In this document: positions 295-52,209 of the stretch, piece by piece
How the letters are laid out: every line of letters starts with the position of its first letter
Position numbering within the stretch: the stretch's first letter is position 1
Source of the DNA: a virus
Virus record (IMG/VR): IMGVR_UViG_3300005264_000830
Coordinates: 1-64,000 of that record
Length of the DNA stretch: 64,000 nucleotides
Reading direction: 5' to 3' (one strand)
Made by a program: the position numbers and the translations under genes
The notes under the pieces: model-generated
What the model was told of the DNA's origin: nothing
Seen by the model: the letters and a program-made list of their open reading frames with translations, nothing else
The model's database searches: none

Positions 295-375
295 ATATGC
301 TGGAAACACTTGATAAGCTTTAGATACTACCGAAATCGGAGTGATAATTCTAAAGATAGAGTCAATCAGCAGGGA
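295..375 (+). repeat. 81-bp direct repeat, copy 2
   Basis: Identical to 188-268. Confidence 0.95.
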
Positions 376-381
376 GTATTT

Positions 382-1734: not shown

Positions 1735-3151
1735 TCCTGCTGTGACAGTAACTCTGAATACCAATGATTTTGGTGATGTAAGGACCTTTGCTTCTTTAGC
1801 TCAGGTTGCTTCTGCAAAGAAAGCTATGAATGCTTCTGCTACTTCTACTAATGCAAACTTAGTGGCTGGTGGTACGTATCTTCATGGTGTAGCTCTTGCA
1901 GATTTTGCCGTAACTTGCGGTAATTTAACTGGTGTTACTTTATGGGCACCTGTTCAAGATGAGTGTTCTATCGGTACGTTGGCTAACAACATCGATCAGA
2001 CATTATTTTTGGACGAAGTATATGTTAACAGTTTGGAATATAGCTATACTACAGGAGCTAATGCTACTGAAAATTATGGCGCTGAAACTGATAATAAGAT
2101 GTGGCTGTTGAATGACGGTAGGTTTGTTAATTTTGAGGAAGCAACTATTTCTGGTGGAAATATAACTGATGGTTATGTTGATCTTAGTTTAGCAGCATCC
2201 GCTGAAATAGCGACACTTACTGCCGGTTTAGGCTTTCTAAGAAAAGATAATGATGGAGCCCCAGCAGTTACTTGGTTTGATGAGAGTAGAAATGTAATGG
2301 AGAATGTAGAAATTGTTGCCGGGGCATCTTCCTCAGTGGATACATATGTATATGAAGATACTGGATCGGAACATAGAATTTATTTGCCAACTGGAGCAAA
2401 AACTCCAGCTATTGGTGACATTCTTACATTTGTTTATTCTGCAGATGCTTATTCTGCACCGATGAATACTTACTTCACACCTCTAACAGAGGCAACTACT
2501 CGTCCTGACGGTGTAGGGGCTTTAAGACAGGGACAAGTTGAAGTATATGTTGTTGATGCTGCTTCTGCCGCTACAGATTTTGATAATGCTTGGCGTTTAA
2601 CAGGTTGTACTATTAGTACTGACTTGACTCGTGAACCATTAACAGAGCTAGGACATCTTGGTCCTTATGATAGACCACTTACTTTGCCTATTCCGATTAC
2701 AATGACTGTAGATTCTACAGCCGGTGATCTTGAAAACTGGGCAAAATTTGCTGGAAAATTAACAGACTTTGATGCTGATACAATGACAGATATAGATCTT
2801 ACTGACCTTATGGTTAAAGATGATCTTACATTAGTTGTTAAAGTATTTGAACAAACTGACGAAGAGGCTGGTGGAACTGGTTCTAATAGAACTGTTTTGG
2901 CTACTAGTGACATGGTCGGTGATGAATATTTTGACGATGGTGTTATGTCAGTATATGCGGGTGGTGAGCGAGAAAGAGCTCTTAAAACTATTGTAGTTAA
3001 AAACCTTAAAATTACTGATGAGGGTATGACTCTCGATGTAGGTTCTAATGCTACCCAGACATTTGGTTTTAAATCATCAAATGACCTGTATGCAATTAAG
3101 GGTGACGTTTCTTACGCTACAGTAAACACTACTATAGCTCGTAATGCTTAA
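1735..3151 (+). CDS. Tail tube/major tail protein-like gene, 3' exon
   Basis: The ORF-track ORF 1742-3151 has no SD. Joining 137 to 1735 gives a 508 aa in-frame protein. Acidic, beta-rich, with tube-like motifs (VYVNSLEYSY, REPLTELG), and positioned before chaperones and the tape measure. Confidence 0.7.
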
Positions 3152-3173
3152 TAAGAAATAATTAAATAAACTT

Positions 3174-3227
3174 TAAGAAGAGGAGGTTTGGTCATCTCCT
3201 CTTCTTAGGATTCTCATTCGATGAGAA
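3174..3227 (+). terminator. Tandem hairpins after the tail tube gene (terminator or RNA stability element)
   Basis: TAAGAAGAGGAG/CTCCTCTTCTTA 12-bp stem, then TTCTCAT-TCG-ATGAGAA. No clear U tract. Confidence 0.55.
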
Positions 3228-3251
3228 GAGATATGGAGGGGAATAAAGGAT

Positions 3252-3518
3252 ATGGGAAAAACATTTAATGATAATAGTCGTAAAAGATTAGTGAAAGATA
3301 TGCGGCAAGAAGTTACTAAAATGATGGAAAAGTCATTAGACTTCGCTGATGTAGCATGCCCTAAAGATAATTTTAAGCAATTAAGATCTAAAATTTTGCG
3401 AATTGGAAATAACTGTATGCGTAACTTAACTGATATTTTTGAAAGTTATGACGTAAAATACACAAAAATTAATGAAGAAATAATAGAATTCAGAAATGAA
3501 GGACAAGGAGAAAAATAA
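3252..3518 (+). CDS. Hypothetical protein (88 aa)
   Basis: SD present; TAATG coupling to the next gene. Confidence 0.75.
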   Translation: MGKTFNDNSRKRLVKDMRQEVTKMMEKSLDFADVACPKDNFKQLRSKILRIGNNCMRNLTDIFESYDVKYTKINEEIIEFRNEGQGEK

Positions 3519-4249
3519 TGGTTGATAACAAAGAAGAAATTAAGGTAGATTTAAGAAGGAGCTTTATTGGCCCAGACGAAGAGACTGTATATTACATTGA
3601 TAACCCTAATGCAGAAGCTATTAGAGGAGCTGATTGGCAATACAGTAAAACCTATACTAGATGTTTGAGTGAAGGTATTACTACTAGTGCTGAGATGATG
3701 GATATACTTAAACGTAGAGGTGTTATAGGGGATGATTTTGATCGTAGAGTAGAAGAACTTACAATTAAGCTTAATGAGTCTATTCAACGATTATCAGAAG
3801 CTGTTACCTCAGAGGATAAAGCAGCCTTAGCGCTTTCAGTATCACAAGATAGAGAATTACTGTTTCAGTGGAATCAAAGACTTAGTGGTCCAATGAGCAA
3901 TACATGTGAACAAATAGCTGATGATGCTAGATTGGAATTTTTGACAGCAAGTATACTGCAGAATGAAGATGGTACTAGAGTTTGGGATCATTATGATGAT
4001 TTTCTTACTACTAGAGATCAAACTCTTTCTATGAAGGCTAGATACGAAGTAATGTTGTTTCTTCAAGGGTATGAGTCAGATTTTCTTGATAGTACTCCTG
4101 AGGCAATGGCAATGCGAGAAGTTGAAGCTGATATTATAAAGGAAGCTGCTAAAGAAGTAGAAGCAAAAAAACCAGTTAAAAAAGTTACTTCAAAAGCTAA
4201 AATAAAACCTAGAACAAAAAGAACTACTAAAAAACCAACTAAAGAATAA
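3518..4249 (+). CDS. Putative tail assembly chaperone
   Basis: Helical acidic protein with a Lys-rich tail, between tube and tape measure. Function inferred from position only. Confidence 0.5.
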   Translation: MVDNKEEIKVDLRRSFIGPDEETVYYIDNPNAEAIRGADWQYSKTYTRCLSEGITTSAEMMDILKRRGVIGDDFDRRVEELTIKLNESIQRLSEAVTSEDKAALALSVSQDRELLFQWNQRLSGPMSNTCEQIADDARLEFLTASILQNEDGTRVWDHYDDFLTTRDQTLSMKARYEVMLFLQGYESDFLDSTPEAMAMREVEADIIKEAAKEVEAKKPVKKVTSKAKIKPRTKRTTKKPTKE

Positions 4250-4251
4250 TT

Positions 4252-5271
4252 ATGGGAGTAGAATTATTATCTGATGATGAAGTAGAGAAATATATTATTA
4301 AAATATCTACTGGAACAAAACTAGATATTATTAGTGATGAAATTATTTTATTTAAGTACCCAGATAATAATTTAAAATTAAAAACAGATATTTTTTATGA
4401 TATATCCTACAAGAAGGCTATTAAAGATGGCCTTCTTGATAGGGTAGCTCTTGAAAATTTAATAAAGAAAAGAAGTTTATTTTCTGCTGAGGAGCAAAAA
4501 CAATTAGACAAATTAAATTCAAGACTAGAAGGGCAACAAATCCTTCTAGGAAAAACAACAAGAGTAAAAGCCAATCAAGATAGAATTAAAAAAGTTATTG
4601 AAGAATTGAATACAGAAATACTTCAATTAACTTATAAGAAAAAATCTAAATTAATGATGTCAGCAGAAGTAAAAGCCAACGAAGAAAGATCCCTCTATTT
4701 GTGTTGGGCAAGCACATTTAATGAAGAAAACTCAGAGTTATATTGGAAAACTTATCAAGATTTTAATAGAACTACTAAAATAGAATTTAGAGAAAAGGTA
4801 CTATCATCTTTTTTAGATTTTTATTCTGGGATACGTACTGATAAGATTAGATATATAGCTAGACATAATTTATGGAGAATTCGTTATGTAAATAGTCAGA
4901 AGGTGGGAGAACAACTATTCGGTGTTCCTTCTGCAAACTATACTACTGATATGCTAAGTTTAGTATATTGGTCAAATTATTATGATAATATATATCAAAT
5001 GATGCCAGAAGATCGACCTGGGGATTTAATAATAGATGATGATGATGCACTAGACGCATACATGAAATCATTCTATGAGGAAAGGACACGAGAGGATGCT
5101 ACTAGACGTAGTAAACATAAAACCCCTGGAAAATTATCAGCATTTGATTCAGAAGAAGTCATAGTTACAGCTTCAAATGAATTATGGCATGATATTGATT
5201 ATGATAAGCCTAGAGAGGCTCAAAAACTAAAAGATAGAACTGATATAAAGAAACGGACCAAGCGAGGATAG
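4252..5271 (+). CDS. Putative second tail assembly chaperone / pre-tape-measure protein
   Basis: Coiled coil plus a C-terminal PEDRP..IIDDDDALD motif; directly upstream of the tape measure. Confidence 0.5.
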   Translation: MGVELLSDDEVEKYIIKISTGTKLDIISDEIILFKYPDNNLKLKTDIFYDISYKKAIKDGLLDRVALENLIKKRSLFSAEEQKQLDKLNSRLEGQQILLGKTTRVKANQDRIKKVIEELNTEILQLTYKKKSKLMMSAEVKANEERSLYLCWASTFNEENSELYWKTYQDFNRTTKIEFREKVLSSFLDFYSGIRTDKIRYIARHNLWRIRYVNSQKVGEQLFGVPSANYTTDMLSLVYWSNYYDNIYQMMPEDRPGDLIIDDDDALDAYMKSFYEERTREDATRRSKHKTPGKLSAFDSEEVIVTASNELWHDIDYDKPREAQKLKDRTDIKKRTKRG

Positions 5272-5330: not shown

Positions 5331-8300
5331 TTGGGCCTATATACAATTGAATTTACTGATAAATCTACCAATAAAGGTGGTGCTGTAACTAGTAAAACTA
5401 GTTCTAAAAGTACTACTGACATATCCAATACACAAAGAGAACTTGCTAAATTTGTTAGCAGTTTTACTAAATCTCTTGAATCTACAATTTCAAAAGCACT
5501 GACTGATGGATTATCCAGATCCTTAAAAGGGTCAGGAGTCCGAAAAACTCAAGCTTCGAATACTACTAATATTTCTAAAGAAGTAAATACTTATACAAAA
5601 AATCTATTTAAAGATTTAGACTCTAAATTATCATCGCTAGGTAAACAGCCATCTGGAGTAGATGTTCAAACTATAGTTAAAGAGATAATTACTGGGTCTG
5701 ATAAAAAAATAGATCAATTAATAAAAGTAATTCAAATCCAGACTGGTGGGTCAATAGATGTATCTACTATAAAAAAGCTTAAAGAATCATTAAATACTAA
5801 CATAAATAAAGCAGCTTCACCTGAAATAGTTAAAGCCTTAACTAATGTACAATCTGCAGTAAATGAATTAAGTGCGGCTAGTAAATCTATAACTGGTGCC
5901 GCTTTAAAATTATCTTCTATAAGAAAAAGCGATTCAAAAATTTCTATGGATGAGTTTACTTCTTACTTCTCTAATATAAAATCATTTGCTTCTAATTCAA
6001 AAGATTCTTATGAAGTTTTAAAATCATTAAAAAATTCAATAGATACTTTAATAAAAGTAGCTTCCAAAAATAATAAGTCTACAAATTTAGGCCCTTTAGG
6101 TGCTTCTTTTGGAAAAGCTGCAGCTAATTCTAGACAACAAATAATAACTAAAACAAAGACTATAAGAGATAATATAAAAGAAGATCCTAAGAAAATAGCT
6201 ACTACAATAGCTAATGCAATATTAAAAGTACTAAAGGATTCGCCATTAACAAATAATTCAAAATTAGTGGATACCCTAACTAACTTTGAAGGAGGAGTTA
6301 AGGATTTAAATAAATTAGCTGGAGAAATTGCTAATGGATTAAAACAGGCTAAGAGTGTTGATACTAAAGGATTACTTACTACACTTAAATCTATTACTAC
6401 TAAACAAGTTCCAATAGATGCAATACAAAGAAATAAAGAATGGAAAGAGTATGCTACTTCAATAAATACTTTAACTAAGATTGCAAATACTATTGTAACA
6501 AAAATAGAACTTGTAGTAGACAAACTTTCTATTAAAAGACAGGTTAAAAAAGCTACTGTAGAAGCGTCTAAAGAAGTAGACCCTATTAAAATTCCTCTTG
6601 ATATAGACACTTCATCATTAGATATAATAGAGAAACAAACAAAGACAATACAGAGTAATTTAGAAGATATACAAAATACCAGGAAGTCTTTTAATGACCC
6701 AAAGCCTGGAACTGTATCTCCTTTTAGTAAAAAAGAAATAACAAATAGTAAAAAAGATTTGGATAAAACTATAGCAGATTTTATGTCTAATTTAACTACT
6801 AGATCAAAATACGCTAAAGGAGCACAGGGGACAAGAGCAGCCAACACTTCATATGCTAAAGGGGAATTAAGACAATTAATAGAAATAAAAGATCTGGATA
6901 AGTTATTTTCTTTTGTTAAAGAGAGACGTTCTAACATTGAAAAACAAGGACCAGATAAATTCTTTTATTCAGGCTGTGATGATGGAAAACAATCATTGGA
7001 ATTATTAAATAAAATATTTAATATATTATCTACCATCTCTCCTGCATATTTAAATGATGCCAAAAATCTTGCTAATAAAGATACTTCTAAAAATATAGAT
7101 TTAAAAGATATAGTTAAAGAATTAAAAACTATTGTAGCATCATTAAAGAATAATGATAGTAGGGGGCTAGAAAATAATACAGTAGATTATTTGGATAGGT
7201 TTACTAAAGCTGTCGAAAAATCTCAAGATAATTATACTGAATTAAAGAAAATTATTGATTATAGTAAAAGTTCGCCAGAACAGGCAAATATTACATTTTC
7301 AGGGTTTGATGAGTTAATTTCACTAGTGACGAAGATTCAAGAGAGTCAGGATATAAAAGCAGACCCAGTAACTGTAAAAGTATCGTCTGTAATTGAATCT
7401 CCTAAAATTAAACCAGCACTTCAACCTACCACAGCTGCTACCAGTAAAGATCCTGCTGCTGGTTCCTCAGGGATAAGAAGAGTGAATCTTGCTAAAGAAA
7501 AACTTGCCCAAAAATCTGTGTATTCTTATAAAGATGCGATTATTCCTCCTTCCAAATCTTTGTCAATGCCAATTATAGGTAGAGGTAAAAAATTAAATCA
7601 AGCTGAGGAGTTACGTAAACTTACTCATGATAATATATCTGAATTGGCCTCTTCGTTAGTAGATTTGAGACAATATATAGTGGATACTTTAAGTAAAGAG
7701 TTAAAAAAATATAATTCTGGTTGGGAAATTGTAAGGGATAGTGAAACACAGCCTATTTCAGAATATTTTAATATGCAAACAGGGTTTAATAAGAAGAAAG
7801 CTGGAAAGCAGTATTCTTTAAAAATCGCAAATATGAAAGAATTAAGATCTCAGACAGGTAATTACAATAAAGATGCTACTCCTACATCTTTAATCTCAGA
7901 TTTTAAAAATATTACTCATAATAAATTAATATCATCTAATAAAGGAGTAATAACCGAAGAGATTGCAAAATGGTTAAAAAGAAATACTGATAAGAATATA
8001 GACGATTGGGATTGGAAAAATGTAGGTAAGTCGGTTGTTGAAAATTTAAAAAGCGCTAAGAAAAATTATGGTGGTAAAGGTTTTGATCCTCCTCAGAAAT
8101 TTATTGATGAATTAAATAAGTTAGGAAGAGCTCAATTAGAGAGTATTTATAAAGATACATTGAGTGAAATACATTCAAATAAATTACTTAATATAGGAAC
8201 TACAAATAAGTATAAGAAAAAAGTATCTCTTACTAGGAATATTAGTGTTCAAGCAGCAAGACGAACCAGTACAGGCGCTGCTACATTTGAAACTGCAACA

Positions 8301-11300
8301 GGCAGCCAACGTGTAATACCAAAATTTGCTACGTATAAATCTGGATTTGAAAATTTATATGAAGATTTAAAAGAAACTAAAGCTTTAAATATGGATAAAG
8401 GGTATGCTACAACTATACAAGGGTTTGGTGTACGTCCAGGTGCTTCTAAATTTAAAGAGGTTAGTAAGACATCTAAAGCCATGTTATTAGACTTGGCCTC
8501 TGTATCTAAAAAAACTAGAGCCGATATAATAGATGATTATAAAGCTGCTACAATAATAAAAGGTAAAGAAATAAAAGATCAGGGAAGAGTAGAATCATCG
8601 GAGCAGTTTACTGGCAAAATTGATAATACTTTAGCTAATGTAGAGCAAGCATTTATAGATGGAAAACTTGCTGCAGAAGACTTCATAAGCACAATGGATG
8701 ATTTAGGACTTACTACAGTTGATGTAGTAAAAAATATGGAATCAGTAGACTTTGAGAATATATATCAAGTTTTTAAACGTATGCTCTCATCTGACACAGG
8801 TACAAAACCACTTACAACTTTAGCTATGAGTCCAGACTTTGATAAAAGCATTCGTGATTATGAAATGAATATGAGAAAATTAATTGGTACTATTCCAATA
8901 GCTGATTCGTCAAGACCAAGACGTTTTTCACATCAAGAAAAGATAGTAAATTTACAAACAATGGCATCAGATGTATATGACGGATCAACTGGCGCAGCAC
9001 AGTTTAATTCTGAGGAACAAAAACAGTATATACGAGATTTAAATTTAGTGCTTAAGGACTTTATAAGTAATTCAGATACATTGAAAGGTACTAAATATGA
9101 AAGAAATATACCAACAAGTGTCTCAAATTTAACTAGTTTAGGTGTACCGGAAGAACAAGCGTCTACATTAAAGGAATTTAGAAATTCTATTAAGTCAGAG
9201 GACTCAAAATATCTAGCCGCTTTAAATGCTACCAATGTAAAAATGTACACAGATACTCTTACTGATTATGCACCATTTGGACAATTCCAGCAGGCTGGTA
9301 GGAATATATCAAGTACTACTAATGCTATGTCTTATAGACCTACAGATTCATCAATAGGTACTGATTTTCCAAGTTTACGTACTACAAAAGAAAATGAAAC
9401 CATAGCTGCAGGTAGATATGGTTCTCAAGGATATGGATTTAATGTAATAGCTGAATTAAGAAATACTGCTAATACTTTTGAGGATCAAATAGTAATAGCT
9501 GGTAAATTGGGAAAAATATTAACTTCAGTGACAAAAACAATAGTACAGCCTTCTGCATTAGGAAGATCTAGTTTGACTGATGCAAGAGGAAGATTGAAAG
9601 ATGTACCTGACAAAGAGCTTGGAGTTAGTACTATTATAGATGGTAAAGAGAGGCAAAACTTAGTAGATGTTAGGAAGAGTATAGATGATCTTAATAGAGT
9701 ATTTCAAAATGTATTAGGGGTGCCGCAAAAATACAGAGGGCGCGCAGATAAAGCGCTAATAAAAGATATAGAACAAGCAGTAACTGTTGTACGTGGTGAA
9801 GATCTAAATATACAAACGGCTAAAATTGCTGAAACATTTTTTAATTACTATGGCAGAAAGTTTACCACCAGATATGGTTCTAAAGGAGTTTCAGTTCAAT
9901 CTACTGCTGGTGTAGTTGACAAGTCTCTTGTCAATAAATTAGGTAATATTAAAAATATCAAAGTTTTGGATGATACCAGTAGAGAGAATACTGGTTTAGG
10001 TTCTGCAATTATGCCTAGAAGTATGGGGGCGTTAATGTCTGATATATTTACTAAGTATAGTAAAGAATTGGTAGCTGGTGGGTATGATGTTACTGAGTTG
10101 AAACGAAGTTTGCAAGAAAGTGGTAATAAGTTTATGATTAGTATATTTTCTAATTCTGATTTAGGAGTAGTTCCTAAATATGAAGCAGAAGCCCAACGAA
10201 TACTTTATACTAAGGTATTTGCAGCTCTTAATAGTTTAGATTTAGGTTTTTCATTAGGTAAAGACATAGAAGGCATTAAGAAATTTAAAAAGGACTACTC
10301 ATCGGAGATTGAAGATGGTAAATTATATGAAGAGAAACCTATAGATATAAGAATAAGCTCATATGGGGCAGGCAAGCGTGGTTTACAGACTGAATTATTG
10401 GAATCCGCTATGGGTAATGTGGTAGGTACTGGGCAACAAGGTTCAACTACTCTTAACACTAATTTTAAACCAGACGTATACAAGAGTATATTAGGTACTG
10501 AAGGTGGGGGTAAGTTTCCTAGTCTAAGTGAGTACAGTAAGGCTCTTGGTTTTACTGTGGTAGACAAAAATACAGGAGAAATGGAAAAAGAAATATTTAA
10601 TATGTTGGCCATACAGAAAGATATTATATCCGAAAAGGAAGCAAGTAGTTTAATATCTAAAAAAGATTCAAAAGAAGGAATTACTATAGAGCAGCAATCT
10701 AAACTAGATGAGAGAATGGCAGTACAAGCGCAAGCCAGATCAATGGCCAAATTAGAGGCATCTTCCAATTTTTATTCTAATACGATAGATGAATTTGGGA
10801 ATGAAAGAAAAAGCATCATCGGGCCAAAATTTGTTGAGATAGTGGAAGATCCAAATGCAAATCCTCCTTGGAGCAAGTCAGATATTTCAAAACAGATAAA
10901 AGGGGAGCGTTTAAATATCCCTGCCTTTGGAGCATACGCTTCAATTTTTGGAAAAGATTCTAATATAATAAGTGAAATGTCAAAGAGTATTCCATTGGAT
11001 GCAAAAAAACATTGGGAATATTTAAAAGCACTACAAGCTATTACTGATGAGACTGGGGTTTTAAAAGATAACCTACTAAAATCTGCTCAAAAAGTGGACG
11101 TAAGCACACTAACTACTTTTACTGAGTCTACTGGTACTTTTATGCCATCAGAGATAGATTCTGGAAGAAGTTTAATTAACACTATATTAGATACTAAAAA
11201 ATTTCCAGGTGCAATAAATCTTCAAATTCCAGACTCAAAAGATCCAAGCAAACGACAAGATTTTTATGTTCCAGGAGCTTTAGCAAGAAGTACTTATCCA

Positions 11301-18923: not shown

Positions 18924-21900
18924 TGAGTGATTTTTCATCTGAAAATACCAAATTAATAAAAGCAATGGCTCCTTTGGTAGGAACTGGTGTAGGTGTGGCT
19001 TTAGTGGCACCGTCTGCTATTAAAGGGCTTAAGTCACTAGTCACTACGGCAAAAGATTACAGAGATGAGAAATATAAAATAATATCAGCTGATGAAGCTC
19101 ATATACAAGCAATACGAAGTGTGGAATTAGAGTATGATGGTTACGAAAAGAAATTAAAGAAAATAAATAGAATAAGTGATTCTTCAGAATTACAGACTAA
19201 AATGGTTGATTTAGATACGTATAAAAGTCCTATATTAGAATTGATACGTATGCAGAAACAATTACAAGGGTTTAACAATAATTTAATAGACATTAATCCA
19301 AATGTTATAACAGGATATGATACATTTGGAAATGCTATTATTGGAACATCTAGTAGTCTTAAACAGTATTTAGCTATATTAGAACAAACAAAGGTTAAAG
19401 AATTAGCTTTAGAAAAAGTAGATGTTGCTAAAAGATTTATTTCTGATTTAACTAAAACTGGAGGTTCTGAGAAAGTAAAAGAAGAACTTAAATCTTTAGC
19501 GTCTGAGTTCCCTGTTATTGGCAAACTTATTTCTTCTAATATAGTAATAGGCACTAGACAGGCTATAGGCACTGTACAAAAAGAATTAAATAAATTAATT
19601 ACTTCTAGAAATGAAAACCCAATATCAACAGCTTTTGATAGTGATATTAAAAAATTAGAAGATAGCTTATCTAAGCTTAGAGATAATTTTAAAAGTTCTG
19701 TTTCTGATTTAAAAAAGACTCTTTCTGACATTGACTTACAAGGTTTATCAGCCGAAGATATAATAGATGTGTTTAGTTCTCCAGATTTAAAGAAAGGTTA
19801 TGAATTATTACTTGAGTACGATGTAAAATTTAATACCCCATTTACTAAAGGAAAAGCTGATATTGGCGATTTAATAGGTAAACAGGTTCTTGGTGGAATT
19901 AATCCTAGAATAACCCCTGTGTTAGAGGCTATACCGGAATTAACTTTAGAACGTACTAAAGAAGCAGGTATACAGCCACTAGAAGGAAAGAAAGAAGTTT
20001 CTCTACGGTCGGGAGATATAGCAATTTTAAATGATGAATTCTCAAAAGATTATAATGTAGCAGGAAGACAAGCTCTAATAGATGTAAAAGATACAGATAA
20101 CATAATATTAGAATATTTTGATAAAAGACAGAATGAATTAAAAAGAAAAACCTTTGATATAACGGATATAAGTCCTTTTGTCCAAGCAATTCTACCTACT
20201 AAACAGATTATGGATGCTACAGAGGACAAATTACAGCAATTAAATGCTTTTGTGGTAGGAGCTTCAGCAGGTATATCTTCTATGGATAATAGATTATTAC
20301 TAGAACGTAACTTAGATTTAGGTGGTAGATTTTTTAGTGATATTAGTACGGGCACTCTAGTTCAATCAGACAAAGGGTATAATCCTATAACGGAAACGTT
20401 TGGAACACAGTCAGAAAAACAAGGGTATGCTGCAGATTTCAAAAAATATTTTTCGGATCCTATGAATGATTATAGTAAACAAATGAATCAATTAAAGAGT
20501 TTAACATATGAAGGTATTGATACTAGTGAGGTACAATTAGTAGGTGCCCTCAGAGAAGAATTATCTAATATGCAAAGTATACTTAAGAATAATCAAATAG
20601 TATTTCAATATAGAGCGGTACATGAAGATCTTAATAAAACATTGGAAGAAGGTACTAGAGTATTAGAGCAAAATATTAATTTAGAAAAACAAAGGCAAAA
20701 AGTAGATACACATAGTACAGGGTTTTTATCTGGAGTAGCAAAAGAGTTAGATAATTTGGATTTAGGTAATTATGATTTTAGTTCTTTAAATACGCAACAA
20801 AAGCTATTATCAGAATCAGATAGTTACAGACAAACCGCTGGTACAGTAAAAGTACGTGAAATTGCTTTAGAAGGTGTTAAACAACAATTGAACGAAATAG
20901 AAAAAGCAAAATTAGCTATAACATCTATAGATAAACTTAATACTGGTTTTGGAAATAAAATTACCCCAGATCAATTTGAACAGTTTGTAAAGATTACAGA
21001 TACTGGCGGATCCCCTATAGATGCTAAAATGCTTCTTCAAAATGAAGCTATATTGAAAGAAGAAAAACTTACAAATTCTAATTTAGAAGAACTTATTAAT
21101 ATTATGGGAAATGAAGATGACATAGCAGGTAAATTAAGTGCAAGTTTAGAACGCAATGTTAGTTCAAAAACTTCTGTATTACCAATTGCAGCAATAAAAG
21201 ATTTAAGTTCTTTAGGTAATATACGAGAGAAAGCCATCAAAGGGGAAAATTATGAATTTGCTGCAAAAATAGATCAAGTAATGAATACTTTTTCAGCAAA
21301 ACTAATAGGAACAGTAGGAACAGATAAAGTATTTAAAGCGATATCTGCTAATAAAGCATTAAATTTAGTAAACCCGTTTTCTAAACAGATCTCAAAAGAA
21401 GAGTTTATAGGAAGGTCTATTAGGGGCGCTAATTTGTCTCCTGAAAAATTTATTGCCGATCTAGATAAATCTCAGAAAAAGGGGTGGTCGTTATTTAATT
21501 CTTCTATAAAAGATTCTCAAAATTATAAACAGTTTATATCTTTGAGAGAAAACAATTCAAATGAATCGTTTATAAAATCAAAAGATGTAGTTAAGGCTGC
21601 TGCAGCTTTAGCTGTGGCAACACAATTTTCTAAACTTTCCCAGGGTAGTAAATCTTCAGAACTGGCAAAACAGTCACAGAGTTTGGAAGAAAGAATAGAT
21701 TTTGCTACTAAATCAAAAGCAACACCTGCAGTTATATCAGCACTTGAAAAAGAATTAAAAGCTACTAGAATAGCTTATGAAAAATCTGATAAAATGTCAG
21801 CAATATATGGTGTGACTCAGGCAGCAAGTGGTATTGTTGGGGGGTCTACTTTATTAGCTCAAACTTTAGGAGCATCAGAAGGAACGGCTAAAGGAACAGC

Positions 21901-24900
21901 TGCTGTAGCTTTAGGTACTTATGGGTTATTAAAGATGCTTAGTAAATCTGTTGGGCAGGATCTGCCCACTTATGTAAAAGAATTTGGGGATAATGTAAAG
22001 CCTTACATGAAGAAATTTTCTGAAGGAAAGGAAGTAGGTGACTACAAATTTAAGAAGATGACTGAAGATTTTGTTAAAACATATAAAGAAGAATCTAAAA
22101 GAGCAACGGGAACTGAACAGGGGAAAGTTGCAGCACAAACTAAAAAAGAATATGATAGTTTATCATCAAAAGAGCTAAAAGAATTGAATAAAATGTCAAA
22201 AGAATTTTATGAAAAAGCTTCTACAAAGGTGGATGAAAAGTCTTTGACATTATTAAAAACTTTAACTGTAGGTTTAACTGCGGCTTTTGCTGGGTATGCT
22301 GCCAAACAACCAGATACAAGACGTAATACCTTAGTAAATAATGCACAAAGAGAAAGTGAAGCATTCAATAGTTTATTGGCCTCTAACACTAAATATGTAG
22401 ATGATGTATTTAAACGCACAGTAAAACAGCAAGACGATTCAAGCATAATTTCTCAGAAACAAGAGCAGACTACAGAGTCTAAACTAATTAATCCTGATGA
22501 TGAGAAAAAGAAACAATTACAGTTATTAGATAATAAGTCTGAATCTATCAGTAAAGAGTTACAGTCTATTTTAAAAACTCAAGCAAGAGATATAGCTAGT
22601 TTAGATGCTGCGAATTTATTAAGAGAAGCACAATCAAGACTAGAAGATTATGTTTTATCAATTAGAGACAGTTTTGTTGAATTCTCAGTTCAAAAAAGAT
22701 TAGGGGGCCCTTTATCAACAGGAAATAAATTAGAAGGTTATGAAGAAGATGCTGTTTTTCCTTCATTTATTAAAGACATGAGTGCTCAAGCAAGAACATT
22801 CGCAAAGTACAAAGACGAAAAAGTTAGAGGAGGAACTTTTGGTGGTGCAATTAAAGATAGTATAGGTAATGGATTTAATGCTATTATTTCAGGAATAGGA
22901 AATAAGTTTGAACAGTTATTGACTCCTTTTACTAATTTTAATGAATTCATGGCGTCATATAAAGTAGGTGATATGACTTATAGTGATCAAACTGGAGTGT
23001 ATAATAGACTTGGCAAACAACAACAATCATATATTGGACTTGGTTCTGTTATATCTAAGGAAATAATGAAACTAAATACTGTTATAAATACTTCTGGCCA
23101 AAATAAACAAGTTAAAAATGCTGCCGAAGATAGAAAAGATGATTTAGAAGATTTATATCGAAAGCTAATTGAAGAGTCTGATAAGACTAAGGACCATTTA
23201 AATCAGTTAGGTACAGCTTTAAGTAATTTTAATTCTTATACTGAAAGTCTACAAAAATTAAATAACGTTATAAAGGAATTATCAGTAACAAGGGTCGTTA
23301 ACAATCTCAAAGGTATGAAGGAGTATCAAGAAAATATATCTAAAATGGTAGGCGGCTCCCATCCGTCAGCTGCTACAAATATAACATATGAGCAGGAACG
23401 TATGGGTGAAAGAGTAGGCATCGATTTAACTAATAGAAAAAGTACGAAGTATGATGTTGAAGAAGTACAAACATTAAATGCTATACAAAAAGGTGATACT
23501 AGTTTAGAAACTATGATGAAGTATTTAGATATTCGTAAACAGGAAAATAGAGATTCTTCAAATGATACTAAACAGAAGGAAGAAGATATATTTAGAGCAT
23601 CATTACAACCATATGAGGAGTTTATCACGTCTTTACAGCGCCTTAAAGGTATGGAAGGTGTAGGTTCAAAAGAAGGTAAAGATATTACTAGTGTAATGGA
23701 AAGCTTGGCAGATAATATGGCAAGAGCAACAGATATGATTACTGTAAAGCAAGCGAAGATAGAATTAAAAGATTCTTTTGGTTTTTTTGAACGTGGAAAT
23801 AAAACGTATAAAGATGAAATGCAGCGATTAAAAGCTATGGACCCATATGATACTGTGAGAAGAGGTATGCCAGTAAAAGAGATGGAAAAATTTAAAAAAG
23901 GTGGAGAGTATGATGAATTACTTACTAAATCTCTATTAGAGATTCCTTCTTTAGATATGAAAGAAATGACTCTCGCAGTAGCGGATCCTATTACTGAAAA
24001 ATTAGATATTAGTAATAAGTTACTTAGTGCACTAGTTAAAGAATCAGGCGGAATGTCCCGTTTAGATATTAAAGATTTATTTAATCCTGAAAAAAAGGCC
24101 AGCGGTGGTCGTATTTTTGGAGCAGGAGGTCCGAGAGATGATAAAGTTCCTGCATATCTAAGTCCTGGAGAGTTTGTAATTAGACAAAGTGCTGCAGTCG
24201 ACATAGGTTACGCTAATTTAGAGCATATGAATCAAGCCGGTTCTATACCAAAATTTGGAGCAGGCGGAAAATTGACTAAACAGCATATATCCGGGGCAAT
24301 ATCTTATTTTAATGATGAGGATGGTTCTTTACCAGACGTATTTAATCCAGAATCAAAACTGTTTAATAAAGGTATAACGAAACGATATCTTAAATACTAT
24401 AAAGAAACACTACCACAAAAAGTTCAAGAAAGAGACGATATTAAATCTATTAAATCATTAAAAGATCTTTATAATACATTATTAGATGTAAGTGATGGGG
24501 GTATTTATACCCAAAATGATTTATTTTTAGAAGACTACTCCCCTCTGTTTAAAAGACTAAAAGAGGATAATAAGCCAGCCCTAACTAAGTGGGTAGAGAA
24601 AAATCTAAGAGGAACTAAAAGTACTGCTACTAAAGGTACTAGAGGTATTATAGGTATGAATATAGAGGAAGCTTTAAAAGAAAAAGATGGAGGATTAATA
24701 CCTAGATTAGCATCTGGAGGATTTTTAGAATCTATAGCTTCAGGAAAAGGTTTTAGACATGTTTCAGATAAAATGCGCGGGGCTCAAAATTGGTTAGAAA
24801 AGAAGAGATTAGACTCTGTTTATACTGAAAATTTTAGTATAGGGAATTTACTAAAACAAGGAGCTTTTGCCACAGCGGAATTAGGAACTCGTTTAGGTAA

Positions 24901-27900
24901 AATGCCAATGGATATGTTTTCTATGATTGAAGGTACTTCAGATTTAGGAATAAGTGGTCTGAAAGATGTAGGTTCTCAGTTGTATACTGCAGCATCTGGT
25001 AAGATTAAAAATGATGGAGTGGTTGGTACATTAAAAGATATTGGAACTGCTGGAATGGATGCTTTAAAAGACTCTATTTCTAAAGGTGGATTGGGTATTA
25101 CATCAGAGGTTTTAGCTGCTGTTACTGGAATAGGTGTAACTAAACAATTAGCTAAATTAGATAAAGCTTCTATACCAAAATTATTTTTAAACGAGCGTGG
25201 CTCATTAAATTTTCCAGTTCCAAAAATGCTGCAATCAAAAATAGATGGTGTAACAAAATCATCTGGGCATTATTCAAATAAAGATATATTAGATGTGTAT
25301 AGACGTCAAGCAGGTACCCCTAGTGAATTAGTAGATGAAGAGCTTGTTAATATTACAGAGGACAATATAGGTACTTTAATAAATTTAACTAGGCCTAAGA
25401 TAGGATCATCAGTAAAAGAACTTAAAGAGGCAGAATTATTACATAAACAACTAAGAGCTTCTATGGTTAAAGTTAAAACCTATTCAGACTCTGATTTAAT
25501 ATCTATGTTAAGGTCAGAGGCTAAAGAGAAATTATCTAATGAATTATGGCAGAAAAGATTAAATTTAATTACTGATTCACACATAAAAACTAAAAATATA
25601 CAAAAATCTAATATAACTAAAGAGGCTTTAAATTCATTAGAGAATAAAGCCTTTGGAAAATTAAAGAAGATAGAAAAACAACCATTATTAAGTACGAATG
25701 ATTATATTAAACAGGCCGGTTTTCCAGCTGATATGCCAAGCAGTGAGTTAAACGCACTTAAAAATCAAGTCAGACAAGCTAAAAGTTTTGCAAAAGCTAA
25801 TAATGTTCAATTTAATGGTTTACAACGTACTCATAACCCAGACCCAGAAAAAAGCGCAGCTTTTTTCTATACTTTATCTGATAAAGCTGAGTACACTAAA
25901 GGAGTTGATTTAGGACTAACATGGCAAGGGTATGGAGGACAAGATCCAATAAAAGTAATGGAAAAAGCTAAAGTTTTAAATTTACAAAAACTTCAAGATA
26001 TTTCTACTAGTGATATGAAGAAAAAAGTAGAAATGGTAAAACAATCGGAAGTTAAATTGACTCCAGCTCAGGAATTAACAAAGAAATTAGAAGCAAAAGC
26101 TTTTGGTCTTAAAGAAGGGGGTATTGTAAACTGGATTAATAATTTTGGAACCTCAAATGAGATAAGTAAGGGTATTGATACTCTTCAAAATCAAAAAAAT
26201 AAATATGGCAAATTTAATAAAGGTATTACTAAAGATTTAGATACTAAAGATTCTAAATTTAATTGGCAAAAACTTAAAGAGAGATTTTTCGGTGGAGGGA
26301 CTACTGGAGTAGAGTTTCAAGATACTATTGACAAATGGCAAAAAGGCGAATTAAAAAAATCAGATGGCGGTTTAATCCAAAAATTTGAAAATGGAGGTTT
26401 GTTATCAGGCCCAGGGTGGTTAGAATCTTTTAAAAAAGAGTCAGATGAGTTTGAAAAAGTAAGTTACTTAGGTAAAGCTGCTAAAAAACAATCTACTTAT
26501 AAAAGTTTTACCGGAGATAGTTCTGACGCACAAGAGGTTTCAAGCACTGATTATGCTAAATCTATTACGAATAGCCAACTTCCAACTAGTAATGTTGAAG
26601 ATTTACCATTCGAATCAAAGTCACTGGATGAAGCAGTTTCTAGTAGTAATGAGTCATCTAATAAATTAAAATTTTTTGATAGACATAAGAATAATTTTAA
26701 TACTTATAGAGGAATTACCAGTAGTTTAGAAGTTAAAGCAGCACCAACTACGTTTCATGCAGATCAATTAAAATCTACAATTGATATTGCTAAAAAAAGA
26801 AATGATTTTATTCCATATACTAATAGTGAATTAGATAATTTAGTACAATTGGGGAATGTGGATCAATTAAATAAAAGAATAAAAGCTTATGATGGCACAG
26901 ATACTGTAGCTCCTGTAGCTCTTTTTAATTCATTGGCAAAAGCTAGAAGGAAGACTACTAATGTTGATGACCCGTCTTTGACTAATACAGTTGATAAGAC
27001 TATAAAAGATCCATCACAGCCTAATTCTTTTAAGACTATTGAAGATTTCTTGGCAGCAGGATTTTCTGAACAAGAAGCTAACTCTATAATAGTTCCAGAT
27101 TTTAAAAAAGAAGATGGATTATTTGGGTTTAAAGGTACTCATCGTGATTTAATGAAAATAAAATCTGAGTTTAGAGAGGAAAGATTATCAGGTAAGCATG
27201 GTCCTCAAAAAGAAGTAGATTTTTATATGGCTGAACTAGGAACAACATTATTATCTACATTAACAGGCTTAATGGCTATGGCAGAGTCTCCTATAGAGAC
27301 TACAAAAAATTTAAAATCATCTTTGGATAGTATAGCTGGTTTAGCACAGGATAAGATACTGAATGATGGAGTATATCAGACAGGAAAAGATACAGCAAAA
27401 GCAGCAGGAACTATGTTATGGGATGACTTAAAAACAGGTGGAGTAGGTACTTTAGCTACTTTAATAGATCTTTTTGTTGGAAGTAAAGTTAGTACTATTA
27501 GGAAAATCCCAAGTTCTATGGGTACTGCACGCTCTACTGTTCCTAAAATACTTAAGCCTCAAGCAGGAATGTCAAGTAATACTATAAAATATTTTAAAAA
27601 GCCAGTAGATGTCGATACTATGATTACTCCTTCTGAATTAAAAGAATTAGATCGTATGTTAAAACCTCAAGCTGGTGCTTCAACATCTGTAATAAAGGAT
27701 TATTTTAAAAATAAAAAACCATCTATGTTTACTAATATTGGAGATAAATTTTCTAATGTTAAATCTAAAATGAAATCTTATTTACCTTCTTTTTCTAAGA
27801 GTAAGAAGGATTTGTCTTTGAATAATAGAAGAAAAAACCAAATACTCATGGATTTGGAGAATAATCCATCACTTATGTCACGATTACAGGGTAGAGTTAC

Positions 27901-30900
27901 TACAGATAAAAATATATACGATGTGATGGAGCAGTACGCAAGTAATAAAGTAAGATCAGAAGATTTTATGCAAATGGTAGGTTCTGCTGTTAGAAAACCT
28001 AAAGATATTATTAACAAATATTCTCCTATAATGGGTAATAAATTTTCTAATTTTGGTGATATAATAGCGTCTAAATTTTCAAAAACTACACGAGATAAAC
28101 GAAAATTTGAACGAGCAAAGAAAAATGCTAAACGTGGAAAAACTAATATAGATAAGCAGCGAAAATTTGCAAAAGATCAAGCGATATATAATAGAACTAT
28201 TAAACAGCAGCTTCATTCAGAGCCTACTACTTCACGCAATCAATTTTTAGATGGTATTTATAGTTCTTTTGATGATTTGACTTCTGCACCTTCTAGAGTT
28301 ACTAATATTAAGGAAACGCTAGGATTAAAAACAATAAAAGAAAATTTAAATAAATTTAAAAGTTCTAAAATTGATATAAATTCAGCAGATTATTTTGAGC
28401 TACAAAAAATACCTGGGGTTGGGCCAGTTCGTGCAGAAGCTATAATGGATTATAGAGAAAAGATTGGAGCATTTGAAAATATATCAGCTCTAGGAGATGT
28501 TCCTGGAGTTCCTTTAAGTGTTTTTAATAAAAATAAAGATATTATTACATCAGTACAGAGGCCTACTATTGATACTACCCCTATTACAAAACCTATGTAT
28601 TCTGTGTACGATATGTTTGCAAATGTTAAATCAAAAGCTGAGGCGGCAAAACCTTTTGTAGAAGATTTAGTCCCAAATAAGTTATCAAAATCAAGAGTAG
28701 CTGCTGCTGCCACAGGTTCGGAAAAAATAAATAAAAATGAAATAAAAAAAGTATTAAAAAAGATACAAAAGGCAGTAGATAAAGGTAAAATGGAAAAAGC
28801 AAATAAAATACTTAATGCTGCTGAAAAAAAATACGGAGTAGCCTATGAAAAATTCGCACAAGGTGGAACAGTAGGGTTTAAAACACCTCAATACTTTAAT
28901 ACAGGTACGACCGATTTAATAAAAGATCTTGAAAAAGAAAAAGAATTACCACTTTGGGGATATAATACATGGAAAGATGTGTCTACTATTTTTACTGAAG
29001 AGGAACGTAACAAGGCTATTAACAGACAACTATTTGGTGTAGAATTTGGAAAAAAATCAGATGAAGAAGTGAGACTGTTAAAAAATGATCGTTTAGTAGC
29101 TAAAGCAATAACTTCTGGAACGATTAAACAATACTTGGCCTCAGCATCTAGAGTAAGGGATGGAGTAGTAAAACTTCAAGGCAAAGACGGATTTCATGAT
29201 ATAGATATAAATGGCCGTATACTAGCTGGAAAGGTAGGAATAGGAGCATACAGAGCGGATACGCCAGAAGAGCGCAAAAAACTAGAATCATATAAAGTTC
29301 CAAAATCAGAAATATTGGAGCAACAAAAAAATTATTTCGACAAAAAAGAAAAAATAGCTACTTTACGTAATGATTTTTTTAGTTCAAATGATTTTTCTAG
29401 AGAACTTCCTAAAGAACTTAGAGGAACTTCTTCTGCAAAATATTATAATTATTTAAAAAATATACATAATTTAAGGGCTATTAATAAAAAGAAGCACTTA
29501 GATTTAGATGGAAAATTTTTTAAGAAAGATGAACGCGCAGCTTTAGAGAAAGACTCAGAATATATGGATTGGGCAGCTCAATTTACAGGACCTATAATGG
29601 AGAAATTAGCTAAAGGAGAGCGCCCAGAAAGTCTAATAATGAAGATTAAGACCGGTAATAGTTTACGCCCTTATGAAAATTTATCTCTTTCAGAGGCAGT
29701 AAATGCTGCAGGAAGAGTTGCAGGGGCAAAATTACAAGGATTTCAATCGAAAGACTTTGAAGATAAATACGGATTTGATGAAACATCTGCATTTTTTGTA
29801 AGTCCTAGTTTATTAGAAGCTGCTAAAAGTGGAGATGAAGAAGCAGCTAATAGACTAAGATTAATGACCACCGATAAAAAAGAGTATTTAAAATTAATAA
29901 GTAATAAAAAAGAAGATCAAGCTTCGGCTGTTGAATTTTATAAAAAATTCTTTGTAGTTAATAGCGGACAAAAATATTACGGAGAAGGTAGTATTAAAGA
30001 ATTACTTAAACAATTAACTGAAATGAAAGGGTCCGGTATAGCTTCAGTAACACCCCAGAAAGCTGCATGGGGAGGACGTATTTTTGGGGCAGGCGGACCG
30101 ATGGATGATAAAGTGCCTGCTTATGTGAGTCCAGGAGAGTTTGTTGTAAGAGCACCTGCTGCAAAGAAACTAGGTTATGCCACACTTGATTTTATGAATC
30201 AAAGTGGTAATGTGCCTAAATTTAGTACTGGTAGTGAACAAAAAACAGATTTTAGTAACCTTAGTATGAATCCATTAGCTTCAAGTGCTATGAATAAAAC
30301 AACTAATGTAAAAGCCACATTAGAAAATAATATTGTAAAGTTAGAAAATGACGTTGTAAAATTAGACAAAGATACAATAAAAGCAAAACTGGATGGTCCT
30401 ATAGAAGTTAAATTAGAAAATGACACGGTTAAATTAGAAAGTGATACCGTTAAATTAGAAGATAATATTGTTAAATTAGAAAGTAATACTATCACTGCAG
30501 TCATGGACGGTCCAGTAGCTGCTGAACTTAAAGATAACATTGTACAATTAGAGAGTAATATTGTTAGGTTAGAAAATGATTCTATTACAGCTGTTATAGA
30601 TAGTCCAGTGGAAGCAATACTTAGTGATAATGTAGTTAAATTGGATGTATCGGCTTTAGGAAATATAGGAACTGATATTGCGTCTGCAATAACAAGTGCT
30701 TTAAGTAACTTAGATTTAGGAAGTACAGTTGGAGCCGCACAAACTAATTTAGATGATTTTATGAATAAATGGAATGATAGAATACCCACTTTAATTATAG
30801 AAGGTATAGATAAAGAAATTGAAGTTTTAGCTGGTAATACACAACAAGTAGCACCACAATATAATAATGACTTAATTGAAAAAGTTAATTATCTAACTAA

Positions 30901-51897: not shown

Positions 51898-52209
51898 ATG
51901 CGTAGAGGGTGGGAAGTTACACTTAAAGATGATACAGTATTAAATGAAGACAATACCGAATGGAAAGATGTTCCAAAAGTAAAAATAAAGGTATTGTCTT
52001 TGTTGTATGATGGTAGACGCTGGGATTTATCAGATAAACAAGCTTATTTTATTCGTAATAAAGCTTCTATGGTCCCAGGCATAGCAGAATCTTTTAAAGT
52101 AGAACGTAGATGTATAGGTTATTATGAAGGGGCAAAAAAGATTCATTATACTGTAGAAGAAGATACTGGAAAATTTAATATGGAAGTAATTGATAATGGA
52201 GCTAGTTAA
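51898..52209 (+). CDS. Hypothetical protein
   Basis: AAGGAGG SD; 103 aa. Confidence 0.7.
   Translation: MRRGWEVTLKDDTVLNEDNTEWKDVPKVKIKVLSLLYDGRRWDLSDKQAYFIRNKASMVPGIAESFKVERRCIGYYEGAKKIHYTVEEDTGKFNMEVIDNGAS

Follow-up and report, generated by a model that had tools for sequence, protein, structure and literature searches.

A giant phage tape-measure protein joined to a single-chain beta/beta'-like RNA polymerase module

Introduction

[quoted passage not shown] Genome entry in T7 and N4 is driven by transcription, which pulls the DNA into the cell.

The closest described system is that of Thermus phage P23-45, in which gp96 is a tape-measure-fused virion RNAP (Chaban et al. 2024, PMC10770324). 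As reported there, gp96 shows activity in vitro, occurs in virions at its full size, and is bound to the pre-early region at 5 min after infection; the authors propose that transcription accompanies the passage of DNA through the tape-measure pore, and crAss-like and N4-related phages are said to have virion RNAPs fused to large proteins of unknown function (PMC10770324). An earlier sequence-only reading of the locus analysed here was not aware of a described case, and its claim to novelty for the RNAP-tape-measure fusion fails because gp96 had been published. Full-text literature searches turned up no tape-measure-fused RNAP beyond P23-45; the supplementary survey of PMC10770324 may include the family described below.

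Here, we analyse a 64,000-nucleotide stretch of DNA (positions 1 to 64,000 of IMG/VR record IMGVR_UViG_3300005264_000830; hereafter the window), in which the evidence supports one open reading frame (ORF) joining a single-chain beta/beta'-like RNAP module to a tape-measure core. The fused family is separate from gp96, widespread and much larger, and the fusion design itself is already known.

Results

Organization of the giant ORF

The source phage is represented by a 129-kb contig estimated to be 49% complete, and the records of its relatives span 234-269 kb. The run table, the only source of habitat labels, assigns the runs holding the contig to sediment or marine sediment metagenomes, and no RNA runs are among the sequencing runs listed as holding the stretch.

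As assembled, the giant ORF occupies 5331..18923 on the plus strand and encodes 4530 aa from a TTG start, with AGGAGG about 10 nt ahead of it; it probably makes up only the opening ~4525 codons of a gene for ~8613 aa that extends to 31009. The N-terminal region (aa 1-1340; 5331..9350, plus strand) is without family match, and its first ~650 aa are weakly conserved (22-26% identity in relatives) with the remainder conserved; the open frames of relatives start ~1190-1370 aa ahead of the RNAP match. Next comes the predicted single-chain two-barrel RNAP module (aa ~1341-2640; 9351..13250, plus strand), assigned from conservation, fold, and homology to stand-alone proteins bearing Rpb2_6 and Rpb1_2, with the beta-like part followed, after a long connector, by the beta'-like part, which has a clamp/active-site region containing DFDGD.

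Between this module and the tape-measure core, at aa ~3388-3554 (15492..15992, plus strand), the residues E3409, G3424..D3427, D3442-I-K3444 and Q3499..Y3503 form a nuclease-like set in the order E / GxxD / D-x-K / QxxxY, a candidate PD-(D/E)XK (RecB/Cas4-like) signature. Of 84 relatives of at least 3000 aa, 62 match, and in these the listed residues are 97-100% conserved; no Pfam family matches over the set.

The tape-measure core (aa ~3980-4430; 17268..18620, plus strand) contains a Pfam PhageMin_Tail/TP901 (PF10145) match at aa 4116-4312, with E 5.5e-25 and 88.9 bits against a cut-off of 33.2, spanning profile positions 3-201 of 201. Nine PHROG tape-measure families also match within aa ~3890-4500 (best E 3.4e-71; ~180-540 residues aligned each), and together these matches confirm the TP901-type core noted in the sequence-only reading. 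The core domain is common to TP901-family tape-measure proteins, relative to which the giant ORF is several-fold longer and carries enzyme modules upstream.

Probable continuation into a second giant ORF

Public contigs diverge from the window at a joint at 18907..18908: the contigs of all three runs covering it depart from the window exactly there, and a 24,193-base contig of the probable source run has 163 additional letters at this point. The second giant ORF (18923..31009, plus strand; 4028 aa) is probably a tape-measure continuation with weak tape-measure PHROG matches, and has a family match to the HHH_3 DNA-binding domain at its aa 3147-3208 (28361-28546). Because 163 = 3x54+1, the additional letters would bring it into frame with the ORF at 5331..18923, and relatives have a single colinear ORF spanning both, with ~52-53 extra residues at the joint. 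The two ORFs are most probably one ~8613-aa protein from which 163 bases were lost in the assembly. A description of the ORF as 4530 uninterrupted residues is accurate for the window as assembled, but its stop at 18923 is probably an assembly artefact.

Upstream genes

Four ORFs of 469, 88, 243 and 339 aa lie upstream (1742..5271, plus strand), and this block is syntenic in 13/13 relatives, with 56-79% identity for the 469-aa product. The 469-aa ORF (1742-3151) falls in a tail-tube cluster of the ESM Atlas with a score of 0.93, and is a tail-tube candidate by that lead only. Pfam and PHROGs match none of the four ORFs, and Pfam Phage_tube_2 and Phage_sheath_1 return nothing in 5/5 records. A G/GT-type -1 frameshift into ORF 4252-5271 was rejected by eye, since past each A-run (~4165-4250) the -1 frame stays open for no more than a few codons. 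The proposal that the giant ORF sits in a canonical tube-chaperone-tape-measure position finds no support in these searches beyond the Atlas lead and the synteny. At gathering score Rfam matched nothing in the window, and by that test a group I intron suggested at ~138-1734 is not confirmed.

RNAP motifs and their conservation

Six motifs of cellular RNAP were recognized in the module, each of those previously quoted being found once and in the order given; the beta and beta' versions agree with the E. coli rpoB/rpoC record. Residue counts are from an alignment of 43 sequences restricted to loci of near-full coverage (42 of the 74 relatives' loci), from which near-duplicates (>80% shared 5-mers), two loci with 1-2 in-frame stops in the region (L017 and L060), one in the wrong frame with 48 stops (L064) and one short locus (L075) had been dropped beforehand. 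Overall identity in this alignment is only 32-51%.

All six lie on the plus strand. In the beta-like part, NTFED (aa 1381-1385; 9471..9485), within NTFEDQIVI beginning at aa 1381, corresponds to beta NFED, and its E1384 and D1385 and the following Q1386 are present in 43/43 sequences. The segment GRKFTTRYGSKGV (aa 1508-1520; 9852..9890) corresponds to beta GDKMAGRHGNKGV, with K1510 and R1514 in 43/43 and K1518 in 42/43, and PIDIRISSYG (aa 1670-1679; 10338..10367) to beta PVDIVLNPLG, with I1671 in 43/43 and position 1672 being D in 36 sequences and E in 7. In the beta'-like part, GKTGSVQEFLFTRKVP (aa 2216-2231; 11976..12023), with GKTG at aa 2216 and FTRKV at aa 2226, corresponds to beta' GKQGRFRQNLLGKRVD (hhalign alternative match to the stand-alone relatives described below, E 0.034). 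It is followed by VRYPFTGISSVQPYE (aa 2389-2403; 12495..12539), with VRYP at aa 2389, which corresponds to beta' NRAPTLHRLGIQAFE (alternative match to these relatives, E 0.073) and has R2390, P2392, T2394 and G2395 in 43/43. Last is DFDGD (aa 2495-2499; 12813..12827), a candidate Mg-binding triad whose three aspartates (D2495, D2497 and D2499) are kept in every sequence.

In ungapped BLOSUM62 comparisons with E. coli, the observed score was reached by 0/500 shuffles for DFDGD, 22/500 for the PVD segment, 72/500 for GDK and 301/500 for NFED, and the best match of the GKQG and NRAP segments fell elsewhere in the sequence. Two of the six motifs therefore stand out against single-sequence chance, DFDGD alone lying beyond all 500 shuffles; the case for an RNAP is made from family conservation, profile comparison and fold rather than from motifs alone. 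A barrel with a DxDxD metal-binding triad is indicated by the conservation of DFDGD, the shuffles, the beta' alignment and the model described below. For a second barrel, which would supply two basic residues (GxKxxxRxGxKG in beta), the indications come solely from sequence and homology.

Relatives and stand-alone paralogues

The RNAP region was found in 46 relatives, 43 of which have PF10145, and the module profile matches 129 clusters (50% identity) at E<=1e-3 and 96 at <=1e-30. Among proteins of at least 3000 aa, 78/85 have the tape-measure core, and the 77 with both features all have DxDGD ahead of the core, by a median of 1466 aa. The presence of RNAP and tape measure in one chain is a natural join conserved across dozens of independent contigs, the order shared by 77/77 relatives arguing that it is not a chimera; the sequence-only reading had called for just such a search. 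The module starts at ~820-1370 in full-length relatives, compared with aa ~1341 here, and in a more distant fused lineage (P0137) DFDGD is at 1007 and PF10145 at 2084-2274.

The module also has stand-alone relatives of about 800-1180 aa (including L081 and L082), among which proteins of 800-1161 aa match the family profile with whole-library E-values of 5.9e-13 to 5.1e-4. Among six short proteins scanned (758-1161 aa), Pfam RNA_pol_Rpb2_6 is present in five and RNA_pol_Rpb1_2 in four at E<=3.3e-5, in that order; examples are Rpb2_6 in P0138 (39.9 bits, cut-off 23.4) and Rpb1_2 in P0151 (32.7 bits, cut-off 25.3). Of five relatives' records, G001 (87% complete) and G003 (100% complete) each encode a full-length stand-alone paralogue, with Pfam matches near or over the cut-offs; none was found in the other three, nor in the 129-kb contig at its estimated 49% completeness. 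Stand-alone RNAPs had no match among GenBank phages. These single-chain beta-beta' RNAPs are homologous to the module, share its motif order and come from genomes of the same phage group; unlike the fused module, they are detectable by Pfam Rpb2_6/Rpb1_2 and lack both the fusion and the ~560 aa insertions between the barrels.

Homology and predicted fold of the module

Alignment of the fused family to the stand-alone family with hhalign gives a match of 99.6% (E 8.6e-24, 426-446 columns) that includes the NxED, GxKxxxRxGxKG and PxDI motifs, and three weaker colinear matches take in the beta' motifs. The stand-alone alignment in turn matches E. coli beta 1049-1125 (78.9%, E 1.6e-5) and beta' 324-465 (E 0.0017). 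Through these colinear matches the motif-to-motif assignments are upheld.

Direct comparisons yielded much less. The fused-family profile gives short motif-level matches only against single sequences of gp96, RpoC and RpoB, the best stretch in E. coli beta' being 457-481. In the ORF at 5331..18923, no Pfam RNAP family matches at E<=1 and no PHROGs RNAP family at E<=0.01. Searches of PDB sequences with the ORF or module found no RNAP by phmmer or profile (the latter returning coiled-coil noise only), tblastn of the module against 50,697 GenBank phage records found no match, and a search of the ESM Atlas gave no usable match.

An AlphaFold model of aa 1361-2560 has a pLDDT of 69.1, and up to aa ~2545 it aligns with the N-terminal parts of beta'/Rpb1, including the active-site region, in 48 of the 50 entries listed; the model thereby supports a resemblance of the beta'-like half to the fold of N-terminal beta'. 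Searches of PDB and BFVD with Foldseek produced nothing at E<=1e-3; RNAP beta' chains were frequent among the weak PDB rows. The structures of phi14:2 gp66, YonO and P23-45 gp96/gp64 are absent among the matches listed, which is not evidence of difference. In a second model, built for aa 1341-1960 from 53 sequences, the beta-like barrel was no better predicted, and a single helical hairpin (residues 405-473) accounted for most of what its fold search matched. Barrel strands are predicted at low confidence, and large insertions separate the motifs.

The module thus resembles E. coli RpoB/RpoC in its six colinear active-site motifs and, as modelled, in the N-terminal fold of beta'. It differs in being one chain rather than two and in having no significant direct sequence match, and no counterpart of most of beta or of the C-terminal half of beta' was found in it.

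Discussion

Like P23-45 gp96, the protein described here is a giant tape-measure protein with a single-chain, predicted two-barrel RNAP, its DFDGD triad lying upstream of the tape-measure part, and the second stand-alone paralogous RNAP of the P23-45 genome has its parallel in two of the five relatives' records. Homology between the two was not detected: BLASTP gives a best E of 0.5, and hhalign of the family against gp96 1-1200 gives 0.8%. P23-45 gp64, compared with the stand-alone alignment, gives 1.2%. The stand-alone alignment against gp96 reaches 46.5% over 75 columns around DFDGD, and is the only one to do so. The RNAP is internal here (aa ~1341-2640, behind 1340 aa) and N-terminal in gp96 (DFDGD at 779), with the P0137 lineage closer to the gp96 layout. 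Its motifs are much closer to those of cellular beta/beta', and a nuclease-like motif set and an HhH domain are present in addition, in proteins of about 7000-8600 aa compared with 5002 in gp96. Moreover, the model aligns with the clamp-bearing N-terminal ~500 residues of beta', whereas the text of the P23-45 report describes gp96 as flat and clamp-less (PMC10770324).

The giant ORF is likely to encode the tape measure of a large tailed phage that has not been cultivated and, by analogy with P23-45 gp96, to provide a tail-delivered polymerase for pre-early genes. The protein would lie in the tail tube and be pushed out into the host envelope before the DNA follows. Its polymerase module would transcribe the genes that enter first (pre-early) with no need for the host enzyme, and in relatives carrying one the stand-alone paralogous polymerase would take over later. 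Tail delivery and host-independent early transcription are both plausible on this analogy.

An active polymerase could instead serve a mainly mechanical or priming role, pulling the long genome in by transcribing it or making primers, and the nuclease-like and HhH modules nearby would process the end of the incoming DNA. This would explain the catalytic conservation equally well, and would suit the fusion of the module to a channel-forming core alongside the PD-(D/E)XK-like set and the HHH_3 domain of the second ORF, as well as the suggestion in the P23-45 report of transcription during DNA translocation through the pore (PMC10770324). The data are compatible with both pulling and expression and do not separate them, and we regard a mainly mechanical role as rather unlikely. 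Somewhat less probable again is that the giant protein does not set tail length, being ejected cargo or a polyvalent protein that happens to include a PhageMin_Tail-like domain, either delivered in the manner of crAss-like or N4-like phages or cut into separate proteins after synthesis. The family searches without tube, chaperone or sheath match, the unusually long tail implied by an all-helical ruler of ~8600 aa, and the virion RNAPs reported in PMC10770324 as fused to large proteins in crAss-like and N4-related phages would all fit such a role. However, PF10145 is far over its cut-off, nine PHROG families align along the core, the upstream block is conserved and has a tail-tube lead, no second tape-measure candidate is present among the ORFs scanned, and the fused form of P23-45 is described as full-sized in virions (PMC10770324).

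That the polymerase-like region is an inactive relic with only a structural role, as a spacer within the tape measure, is very improbable: the ORF lacks a Pfam RNAP match and has large inter-motif insertions and low-confidence barrel strands, but a spacer would not keep catalytic residues, and the three aspartates, both lysines and the NxED acidic pair are retained in 42-43 of 43 sequences at 32-51% identity. A chimeric assembly can be dismissed, for the one error-like joint, at 18907/18908, is downstream of the core and its mending lengthens the fusion, while the module-core order is common to all 77 relatives, from many records, and the loci examined keep an open frame throughout the region.

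A tail-delivered polymerase for pre-early genes may also be part of something larger, and here we are decidedly tentative. The RNAP-tape-measure fusion might have arisen at least twice, once in Thermus Oshimaviruses and once in the widespread sediment-phage group described here, and the ~8600-aa protein might be a complete tail-delivered infection-starting machine that both pulls in and transcribes a genome of ~250 kb. A beta/beta'-type polymerase with a clamp, a nuclease, a DNA-binding HhH part and a channel-forming tape measure would then act together, threading through the tail and gripping the incoming DNA end, before the duplicated stand-alone copy takes over.

A practical gain of the analysis is the correction of a probable assembly error splitting the gene, and if the two ORFs are one, few phage proteins on record are longer. 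P23-45 was described as an isolated and unusual example, and the arrangement is here common in uncultivated large phages, with 129 clusters and several distant fused lineages. The architecture also differs, the polymerase being nearer to cellular beta/beta' and, judging from the model, apparently having a clamp-like part. These features bear on how so large a folded polymerase travels a tail tube and on whether the fusion evolved more than once, and the family is a natural sequence set for studying minimal single-chain beta-beta' polymerases.

Polymerase motifs and a tape measure core in one reading frame

ORF1, a giant open reading frame at 5331..18923 on the forward strand, encodes 4530 aa from a TTG start with AGGAGG ~10 nt before it. 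A sequence-only reading had placed RNA polymerase (RNAP) motifs in this frame ahead of a TP901-type tape measure core, and both parts of that claim hold. In the translated ORF each motif is found once and in the order proposed – NTFEDQIVI at aa 1381, GRKFTTRYGSKGV at aa 1508, PIDIRISSYG at aa 1670, GKTG and FTRKV at aa 2216 and 2226, VRYP at aa 2389, and DFDGD at aa 2495 – and the C-terminal part matches Pfam PhageMin_Tail (aa 4116-4312, E 5.5e-25, 88.9 bits vs a cut-off of 33.2) and nine PHROG tape measure families (best E 3.4e-71, aa 3978-4374). The Pfam and PHROG searches of ORF1 returned no RNA polymerase family. Between polymerase and tape measure core lies a further motif set (E3409, G3424..D3427, D3442-I-K3444, Q3499..Y3503; window 15492-15992) with no Pfam match, 97-100% conserved in the matching 62 of 84 long relatives, which we take to resemble, putatively, PD-(D/E)XK nucleases. 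The next giant frame, ORF2, contains a helix-hairpin-helix DNA-binding domain (HHH_3, window 28361-28546, ORF2 aa 3147-3208, Pfam E 1.6e-15). Enzyme load differs among the giant proteins, because a 6972-aa relative (P0046) has an RNase_T-type exonuclease domain (PF00929) besides PF10145.

The four ORFs upstream of ORF1 (469, 88, 243 and 339 aa) have no match in Pfam or PHROG; their order is kept in 13/13 relatives, with the 469-aa ORF 56-79% identical. In the ESM Atlas this ORF lies near a tail-tube cluster (score 0.93; Phage_tube_2 in 25% of members), which is a lead only. Pfam tube and sheath models found no match in five records, and no chaperone frameshift was seen upstream of ORF1; the proposed canonical tube-chaperone-tape-measure position is plausible. 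Directly before the 469-aa candidate for the tail tube is a LAGLIDADG_2 homing endonuclease gene with HTH domains (window 310-1458, Pfam E 1e-24), and a short ORF begins at window base 28 (region 28-1741). Rfam gave no RNA family in the window at the gathering score, group I introns included.

Identity of the polymerase module

Taken as a single sequence, the window's similarity to Escherichia coli RNAP is weak. The E. coli motifs, checked in the records, are NFEDSILV, GDKMAGRHGNKGV and PVDIVLNPLGVPSR in beta, and GKQGRFRQNLLGKRVD, NRAPTLHRLGIQAFE and DFDGDQMAVH in beta'; an ungapped BLOSUM62 scan put the top match at the claimed site for four of six segments, and just two exceeded chance, DFDGD (0/500 shuffles) and PVD (22/500). 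This weak case is made good by stand-alone relatives, unfused RNAPs that link the module (the beta/beta'-like region, aa ~1341-2640 of ORF1) to Rpb2_6 and Rpb1_2 by sequence.

Across a 43-sequence module alignment, A6, with identity to the window of just 32-51%, residues E1384, D1385, K1510, R1514, R2390, P2392, D2495, D2497 and D2499 are conserved in 43/43 and K1518 in 42/43. The A6 profile also matches five stand-alone proteins of 800-1161 aa (P0138, P0144, P0146, P0147 and P0151; whole-library E-values 5.9e-13 to 5.1e-4), which bear NxYED, GFKITNRHGNKG and DFDGD, and match Pfam RNA_pol_Rpb2_6 followed by RNA_pol_Rpb1_2, several over curated cut-offs. When the profile of the window family was compared with that of the stand-alone proteins, the probability was 99.6% (E 8.6e-24, 426-446 columns) with the NxED, GxKxxxRxGxKG and PxDI motifs paired, and three weaker colinear hits pair GKxG..RKxP (E 0.034), RxPxxG..Q (E 0.073) and DFDGD (E 0.0024). 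Aligned together, the stand-alone proteins match E. coli beta 1049-1125 (78.9%, E 1.6e-5) as well as, in the expected register, beta' 324-465 (E 0.0017). Since the stand-alone relatives thus pair both with the module motifs and with E. coli beta and beta', the motif-to-motif assignments are upheld, and we consider it highly probable that the fusion is genuine and the module an RNA polymerase.

The fusion in related viruses

A word-indexed search with ORF1 aa 1340-2640 yielded 46 relatives, mostly of 6600-7900 aa, with PF10145 in 43; the contigs that carry them reach 318 kb. Scanning viral contigs turned up 23 loci, and scanning metagenome contigs 51. When the A6 profile (aa 1365-2515) was run against 1.84 billion representatives, 129 clusters matched at E<=1e-3, of which 96 reached E<=1e-30; ~60 are full-length proteins (6400-8000 aa) in which the module occupies residues ~820-2550. 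The window's tape measure core is matched by 78 of 85 proteins of at least 3000 aa, and the other seven (3050-4331 aa) are probably truncated where their contigs stop. DxDGD precedes the core in 77/77 proteins bearing both elements, and more distant lineages also have both (P0101, P0104, P0123, P0127, P0137, whose core was confirmed with Pfam, and P0141); an arrangement so shared excludes a chimeric join of the RNAP and tape measure parts. Two loci on one 55,152-base contig (L017 and L060) have 1-2 in-frame stop codons within the polymerase region, which could reflect an error in sequencing, a gene that is broken or recoding; none occur in the other near-full-length relatives examined, the wrong-frame L064 apart.

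ORF2 (18923..31009, 4028 aa) starts on the last base of the ORF1 stop codon in a different frame. In relatives a single ORF covers ORF1 and, beyond it, the initial ~2000 aa of ORF2 in colinear order, with ~52-53 extra residues at the joint. Public contigs from four runs were aligned over window 17900-19900, those of the fourth lying off the joint. A 24,193-base contig from the possible source run matches 17900-18907 and 18908-19900 without mismatch, with 163 letters in between, and short contigs from two further runs, of other studies, diverge from the window exactly at 18907 and 18908. As 163 is 3x54+1, ORF2 enters the ORF1 frame, and the 54 residues agree with the stretch missing relative to relatives; no in-frame stop was present in the 30 letters after 18907 (one run, read by eye). 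With frame restored and gap filled, ORF1 and ORF2 are most likely one gene of ~8613 codons.

Genome context

The window makes up the first half of one virus record of 129,404 bases, estimated to be 49% complete, in which every gene is on one strand. Elsewhere the record encodes a family A DNA polymerase with an intein, a clamp-loader-like ATPase, ribonucleotide reductase, a DNA methylase and sugar-modifying enzymes. Three further very large ORFs have no PHROG match: 1863 aa at window 52209-57800 (also no Pfam match), 3766 aa from window 58215 to genome 69515, and 3499 aa at genome 72209-82708; five genes take up ~53 kb of the contig. Neither the ten downstream window ORFs scanned nor the three adjoining the tape measure gene matched PHROG, and the sole other Pfam signal among the ten is a C-terminal bacterial Ig-like domain (Big_1/Invasin_D3, below gathering cut-offs) in a 416-aa ORF at 39624-40874. 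The genome is rich in selfish elements, with intein splicing and LAGLIDADG_3 domains in the DNA polymerase (L080 12231-15317, genome 122631-125717) and a glycosyltransferase (L079 16971-19163, genome 108271-110463), and the homing endonuclease near base 310.

Comparison with Thermus phage P23-45

That no such fusion had been described, as the sequence-only reading supposed, is out of date, because Chaban et al. (Nat Commun 2024;15:317; PMC10770324) reported gp96 of phage P23-45. According to that paper, gp96 is a 5002-aa tape measure protein whose N-terminal ~1200 residues form a two-barrel RNAP with DFDGD at 779-783; its RNAP fragment is active in vitro, and at 5 min after infection gp96 is bound to a pre-early region of 9 kb, which encodes gp64, a second, non-virion RNAP. 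The authors call gp96 flat and clamp-less, and propose that it transcribes during DNA passage of the tape measure pore (PMC10770324). When the whole records of five relatives were searched with the stand-alone alignment, two proved to have a full-length stand-alone gene (G001, 237,910 bases, 87% complete, 1180 aa; G003, 268,764 bases, 100% complete, 1109 aa), with Rpb2_6 and Rpb1_2 matches near or over cut-offs, a fused and stand-alone pair that resembles gp96 and gp64; in such searches only the fused copy was seen in the contig of the window and in the three remaining records (55-89% complete).

No similarity to gp96 was detectable in either the polymerase or the tape measure part (BLASTP best E 0.5; hhalign 0.8%), and 50,697 GenBank phage records held no match to the module or to a stand-alone relative. 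The module is internal, after ~1340 aa, whereas the gp96 RNAP is N-terminal; its motifs are near those of cellular beta and beta'; its predicted model aligns with the N-terminal portion of beta' that bears the clamp, whereas gp96 is described as clamp-less; and the family adds the putative nuclease-like set and HHH_3 domain. The window family is not the first tape-measure-fused RNAP; it is separate, widespread, larger and differently built, and possibly an independent fusion event. By analogy with P23-45, its polymerase would likely be a tail-delivered virion RNAP serving pre-early transcription.
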